Part shown: piece after piece, positions 22,612 through 22,690 of the stretch | Layout: each line of letters begins with the position of its first letter | Position numbering within the stretch: position 1 is the stretch's first letter | Assembly (NCBI RefSeq): GCF_003334355.1 | Contig: NZ_QOWP01000039.1 | Length of the DNA: 30,913 nt | Direction: 5' to 3' (one strand) | Source: Escherichia coli | Lineage (GTDB): Bacteria > Pseudomonadota > Gammaproteobacteria > Enterobacterales > Enterobacteriaceae | Made by a program: the position numbers and the translations under genes | The notes under the pieces: generated by a model | What the model was told of the DNA's origin: nothing | Seen by the model: the letters and a program-made list of their open reading frames with translations, nothing else | Database searches by the model: none

Positions 22612-22690
22612 GCGTTAAAAGAAAGCTGGCAATCCAATTGCCAGCTTAAGTCGAAACAAGGAGACTCGATATTTAAATCGGATTACATTT
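22612..22690 (-). ncRNA. Candidate antisense small RNA in the gadE leader (possibly ArrS); only the 3' terminator is supported
   Basis: 10-bp stem agctggcaat / attgccagct (22624-22646) which, read on the minus strand, is followed by ttcttttaac. This is an intrinsic-terminator signature for a minus-strand transcript ending near 22614. The 5' end is a guess. Confidence 0.25.

Follow-up and report, generated by a model that had tools for sequence, protein, structure and literature searches.

The perfect hairpin with its adjoining U-rich tract in the hdeD-gadE intergenic region is almost certainly (probability about 0.97) the Rho-independent terminator of ArrS, a 70-nt minus-strand small RNA running from 22686 to 22617 of the window, i.e., the whole 30,913-nt stretch of Escherichia coli DNA analysed here (NCBI RefSeq assembly GCF_003334355.1, contig NZ_QOWP01000039.1). 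The feature is already known: ArrS has been characterised as an sRNA in the acid-resistance network of E. coli, and for that reason nothing biologically new is claimed. A real sRNA terminator was nevertheless recognised from the raw sequence in the original prediction, and a small comparative addition can be made: at least four other Escherichia species hold ArrS at the same position, its conservation has a sharp boundary at the 3' end, and no changes are seen in its seed, terminator or core promoter bases among the species compared. Automated pipelines miss ArrS, since it has no Rfam family and is left unannotated by PGAP in thousands of genomes.

The surroundings in the window are those of the E. 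coli acid fitness island. Protein genes and ArrS elements referred to below are as follows:

20598-20936, minus strand, hdeB
21040-21372, minus strand, hdeA
21627-22199, plus strand, hdeD
22998, plus strand, ATG of gadE
23864, plus strand, mdtE
22617-22686, minus strand, arrS gene, ArrS small RNA of 70 nt (5' G at 22686, 3' U at 22617); exact K-12 match, transcription start site, Term-seq and fold
22623-22647, minus strand, ArrS intrinsic terminator hairpin (11-bp perfect stem, 3-nt UGG loop); sequence, terminator scan and fold
22617-22622, minus strand, U-rich tail of the terminator, UCUUUU; sequence, with the Term-seq 3' end at the last U
22677-22686, minus strand, 5' seed of ArrS (nt 1-10) for trans pairing with cfa mRNA; 10 contiguous pairs computed, nt 1-8 invariant across Escherichia

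The hairpin, AAGCTGGCAAT-CCA-ATTGCCAGCTT at 22623-22647, pairs perfectly over 11 bp, has a loop of 3 nt and folds at -15.0 kcal/mol on both strands. It had been described as a 10-bp stem at 22624-22646; the stem is the same, with its outer A-T pair omitted. Its distance from the gadE ATG, 351-375 nt upstream, is close to the approximately 350-385 nt given before. Downstream of the stem, the minus strand reads TCTTTTAACG and the plus strand AAGTCGAAAC; because the flanks differ in this way, the T-rich tail is found on the minus strand only, as had been claimed, and the consensus terminator scan called 22623-22647 as a minus-strand terminator-like site.

Nothing beyond its bare presence speaks for a hairpin that ends read-through from a minus-strand protein gene or has arisen by chance, and this reading is hardly credible. 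When the entire 30.9-kb window was shuffled 200 times with dinucleotide counts preserved, perfect hairpins with a stem of at least 11 bp (loops of 3-8 nt allowed) turned up in only 4.5% of the shuffles (mean 0.05 per window), and the element is conserved across species. According to the list of open reading frames, the 60 nt upstream of the hairpin contain no end of a minus-strand ORF of at least 30 aa, in agreement with the original prediction; hdeD lies on the plus strand and has a hairpin and a plus-strand 3' end of its own, at 22217-22253.

Identification of the RNA as ArrS rests on an exact match. In E. coli K-12 MG1655 (RefSeq NC_000913.3), the hdeD-gadE interval carries the minus-strand ncRNA arrS (b4704, 'small regulatory RNA ArrS'), annotated at 3657985..3658054, and its 70 nt are identical at 70/70 positions to the minus strand of window 22617-22686. 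ArrS had been put forward as a possible identity, with comparison to the published sequence as a check, and the match to b4704 settles both. The flanking 3 kb are 99.87% identical to K-12, gap-free, with 4 positions different; as this alignment is ungapped, a window coordinate equals the K-12 coordinate minus 3,635,368. Strand, position relative to gadE (-381..-312), terminator and 5' seed including C7 are all those of ArrS of K-12 (arrS, b4704, ECK4516). The RNA itself does not differ, whereas the four differences in the flanking 3 kb indicate another E. coli strain. No evidence contradicting the ArrS identification was found. Searches with Rfam 15, in which E values of up to 1 were allowed near the site and the gathering threshold was applied across the window, returned no family overlapping 22617-22686; ArrS is without an Rfam model, and PGAP annotation is absent at the site. 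The final 31 nt of ArrS are the hairpin and its UCUUUU tail, and the complete RNA folds at -20.2 kcal/mol (z = -3.84 vs. shuffles). Two small 5' hairpins in its minimum-energy fold were rejected as unsupported: the first loses two pairs through a deletion in E. albertii, and the second has one pair broken in three species.

Published RNA ends coincide with both ends of this RNA. In the Term-seq data of Adams 2021 (PMC7815308, Supplementary file 1), minus-strand 3' ends classed as 'primary, arrS' are listed at K-12 3657985 (window 22617; 982,952 average reads, M63 OD 0.4 sheet) and 3657984 (window 22616; 171,112 reads, LB OD 2.0 sheet); the LB OD 0.4 sheet holds no arrS entry. ArrS 3' ends are thus abundant both in LB at stationary phase and in minimal medium with glucose, and unlisted in exponential LB (K-12 Term-seq). 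Both positions coincide with the end of the U tail (K-12 data; the sequence is identical here), and the 3' terminus of the RNA is UUUCUUUU, i.e., the last two stem bases and the U tail. Term-seq had been named as the check for a minus-strand 3' end, including under stationary-phase conditions. Such an end exists and is dominant, also in LB OD 2.0; its position is 22617/22616 and not near 22614, as had been expected.

On the plus strand, the same data set places a 3' end at K-12 3658019 (window 22651; M63 OD 0.4), 4 nt past the stem. Together with the perfect palindrome, which is as stable (-15.0 kcal/mol) on either strand, this end could mean that the main role of the hairpin is on the plus strand, in the gadE T3 leader, where it would work as an attenuator or pause site or protect the 3' end of a truncated leader RNA, and that the minus-strand RNA is secondary. 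We consider this unlikely. At 22651 there are 1,432 reads against 982,952 on the minus strand in the same sample (approximately 700-fold fewer), a T tract is absent after the stem on the plus strand, and an end a few nucleotides beyond a stable stem is expected from exonuclease trimming or from an RNase III cut of the ArrS/T3 duplex. The end at 22651 therefore more likely belongs to a leader fragment left by trimming or by an RNase III cut, and a plus-strand role would in any case be compatible with ArrS. Somewhat more doubtful still is a double function, in which 22651 would be a regulated stop or the end of a stable leader RNA, so that one hairpin would serve both as ArrS terminator and as a point of gadE processing or attenuation; variants such as the IS200C insertion of AH21H052 (see below) might also rewire gadE control.

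At the other end of ArrS, the transcription start site is tabulated at K-12 3658054 (window 22686; supplementary table of PMC7967276). With this 5' end, nt 1-10 (GUAAUCCGAU) form 10 contiguous pairs with positions -104..-95 of cfa, and ArrS C7 is opposite cfa G-101 in the computed pairing (cfa leader from K-12). Compensatory mutants have been published for this pair (ArrS C7G / cfa G101C; PMC6755755). The register of the seed agrees with these mutants and so lends separate support to a 5' end at 22686. A full-length RNAduplex prediction for ArrS and the cfa leader was rejected, as it over-extends and is equalled by 11% of shuffles; only the contiguous 10-bp seed is meaningful.

Upstream of the start, two putative promoter elements were read from the sequence:

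22693-22699, minus strand, putative ArrS -10 element, C TAAAGT (C at -13)
22716-22721, minus strand, putative ArrS -35 element, TTGTGA (17-nt spacer to the -10 element)

As predicted from sequence, the ArrS promoter would consist of TTGTGA, 17 nt, C-TAAAGT, 6 nt and the G start. The consensus scan missed the -10 element because its score is 8/12 and the threshold is 9. Among eight Escherichia sequences, all six bases of the -35 hexamer TTGTGA are invariant, as are T-12, A-11, T-7 and C-13 of the -10 element. A C at -13 is a typical feature of sigma-S promoters, and the ArrS -10 element with its C at -13 (CTAAAGT) fits sigma-S. In PMC6755755, which cites Aiso et al., ArrS transcription is said to depend on sigma-S and GadE. 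No match to the GAD-box consensus with at most 3 mismatches was found in the whole window, and a looser GAD-box scan near the ArrS promoter gave a best score of 12/20, which is not meaningful; direct GadE control is unreadable from the sequence because no GAD box above 12/20 is present near the promoter.

ArrS is placed antisense to the long gadE leader, the published coordinates of which give one further feature:

22432-22997, plus strand, gadE T3 5' UTR, the cis target of ArrS, containing the ArrS-complementary stretch 22617-22686; gadE ATG at 22998 and published starts

According to PMC3708157, citing Sayed & Foster 2009, gadE is transcribed from -566 (T3), -324/-317 (T2) and -124 (T1), which on these figures correspond to window positions 22432, 22674/22681 and 22874, respectively; a gadE start is also tabulated at K-12 3657801 (window 22433). 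Since T3 starts at -566 in this account, ArrS, spanning -381..-312 relative to the gadE ATG, is wholly within the 566-nt T3 leader, as the original prediction of a cis-antisense RNA to the long gadE 5' UTR had it, and a perfect 70-bp duplex is therefore possible between both RNAs. T2, by the same published positions, starts inside the first 13 nt of the ArrS template.

Two further elements of the intergenic region were observed. A perfect 14-bp palindrome (GGATCATAGTCACT...) is located at 22217-22249 on the plus strand, right after the hdeD stop codon and without a T tract; it is likely the hdeD 3' end structure, because a Term-seq plus-strand 3' end is found at K-12 3657621 (window 22253). 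Its loop differs from K-12 at 22233. A second conserved island at 22362-22436, with 80-88% invariant columns in five Escherichia species in an otherwise diverged intergenic region, probably holds the P3 promoter and regulator sites, as it ends just downstream of the T3 start (22432/22433).

For the function of ArrS we rely on published work. Its cis-antisense action and its control by sigma-S and GadE are described in PMC6755755, a later paper summarising the original ArrS work. Cleavage of the ArrS/gadE duplex by RNase III, with a positive effect on GadE, is reported in PMC6212723 and PMC8708148, and transcriptome-wide mapping detected an RNase III site in ArrS (PMC6212723, PMC8708148). In the proposed mechanism, taken from later summaries of Aiso 2011 and 2014, ArrS and gadE T3 would form a duplex that is a substrate of RNase III, the long gadE mRNA would be processed and GadE production would rise. 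Overexpression of ArrS is reported to increase acid survival, and transcription of ArrS dependent on sigma-S and GadE would close a positive loop. ArrS is also reported to bind Hfq and act in trans, nt 1-10 of the seed covering an RNase E site within the leader of cfa and so activating cfa, and the loop of the terminator hairpin is reported to be required for repression of fepA.

The trans activities are documented as follows. Activation of cfa via a masked RNase E site was reported in PMC6755755; in Hfq RIL-seq, ArrS is trans-acting, with partners enriched in acid-response genes (PMC5145812); repression of fepA by ArrS needs its own terminator loop (PMC11979758). Association with, or dependence on, Hfq comes from RIL-seq and reporter assays (PMC5145812, PMC11979758). 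Features of Hfq-binding sRNAs seen in ArrS are the UUUCUUUU 3' end after the stem and an upstream U-rich linker (CCUUGUUUCGACUU). A delta-arrS mutant had wild-type acid-shock survival under the conditions of PMC6755755, and the physiological importance of ArrS rests mainly on overexpression.

Likeness to other sRNAs is found at several points. The following sRNAs were located in the window by Rfam:

5075-5115, plus strand, ES036
13894-13977 and 14125-14208, plus strand, two copies of AgrB
23643-23714, plus strand, ES205, which is GadF, from the gadE 3' UTR (gadF in K-12)
29493-29606, plus strand, GadY

GadY (Rfam RF00122) is, like ArrS, a cis-antisense, Hfq-binding sRNA of the acid fitness island; it too brings about RNase III-dependent processing of a regulator mRNA (gadX-gadW) with increased acid resistance, and is trans-acting in RIL-seq (PMC5145812). 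It differs in its unrelated sequence, in having an Rfam family where ArrS has none, and in overlapping the gadX-gadW intergenic region (gadX 3' end), whereas ArrS overlaps a 5' UTR. RydC binds the long cfa 5' UTR at a site that overlaps that of ArrS, and both mask an RNase E site (PMC6755755); in contrast to ArrS, it is an unrelated, pseudoknotted, purely trans-encoded sRNA, and under the same conditions delta-rydC was acid-sensitive but delta-arrS was not (PMC6755755). SdsR and RseX resemble ArrS in that the exposed loop of the intrinsic terminator is needed for fepA repression via a distal 5' UTR stem-loop, and repression by all three is dependent on Hfq and RNase E (PMC11979758); they are other sRNAs, with other loop sequences than ArrS. 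Base pairing of the sRNAs with fepA could not be demonstrated (PMC11979758).

Of 5426 complete E. coli genomes, 5412 carry ArrS, 4096 of them in identical form. When seven other E. coli lineages were aligned over the intergenic region (AH21H052 being added only from the IS200C junction onward), 22646 was the sole variable ArrS column. The variant at this position, the sole one in the stem, changes the A-U pair to G-U and occurs in B2-type E. coli, Ec8794 and E. albertii.

This variant bears on another reading, in which a dimeric gadE regulator would use the 25-bp palindrome as its operator in the DNA and the terminator look would be incidental. Perfect palindromes are typical of operators, and the 798-bp hdeD-gadE region is densely regulatory, many factors binding it, ArcA, H-NS and GadE among them (PMC3708157). 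The G-U variant, though, retains pairing in RNA and breaks the dyad symmetry of the DNA, an RNA 3' end with very high read counts falls exactly at the U tail, and the mapped gadE starts P3 and P1 lie 100-250 bp away; no factor was reported to bind the palindrome in the literature examined. An operator is accordingly very improbable.

In AH21H052, IS200C is inserted approximately 2 nt into the ArrS U tail (window 22618/22619; approximately 380-455 of its locus sequence); the tail UUUCUUUU becomes UUUCUUGUG, and all downstream sequence is replaced.

Species-representative genomes were scanned with the exact 21-nt hairpin core (GCTGGCAATCCAATTGCCAGC), so that invariance of this core across species is by construction, the core having been the search key. 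It was found in six Escherichia records: E. albertii, E. whittamii, Escherichia sp. E1V33, Escherichia sp. MOD1-EC7003 and two divergent records labelled E. coli, E69 and SCPM-O-B-8794. The order hdeA-hdeD-hairpin-gadE-mdtE is common to all six Escherichia records, and the start of the core (window 22625) is 371-375 nt from the gadE ATG across the Escherichia records. In at least four other Escherichia species (E. albertii, E. whittamii, E1V33, E69), ArrS thus occupies the same position.

An alignment of eight Escherichia sequences shows no variation in nt 1-8 of ArrS, in its terminator and U tail, in the -35 hexamer or at the key positions of the -10 element. In a five-species profile, 90% of ArrS columns are invariant vs. 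5% in the 20 nt past the 3' end; values fall from 80-88% at the ArrS 3' end to 0-4% over the 100 nt downstream of ArrS (22512-22611). From ArrS toward gadE, conservation persists (65-87% invariant, five species), and for this reason only the 3' boundary is sharp. Part of the conservation of ArrS may thus stem from promoter or leader function of gadE and not from ArrS. A covariation test on the eight Escherichia sequences was uninformative, with no pair altered on both sides and shuffles equal to the observed value.

E. albertii ArrS is without AUU (nt 9-11; window 22676-22678), which cuts the cfa seed to nt 1-8; this 3-nt deletion costs two pairs of the predicted small 5' hairpin mentioned above.

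Matches of the 21-nt core outside Escherichia were rejected as homologues, being hairpin only or contamination. The core GCTGGCAATCCAATTGCCAGC occurs in two Photobacterium species and in Terribacillus, in terminator-like contexts with unrelated flanks, which looks like convergence or chance among many terminator hairpins and not like homology. On the 8.6-kb contig NZ_JAUFQN010000010.1, labelled Flavobacterium paronense CECT 8460, 194 of 200 positions are identical to the E. coli hdeD-gadE region; this contig is almost certainly E. coli contamination of the Flavobacterium assembly.
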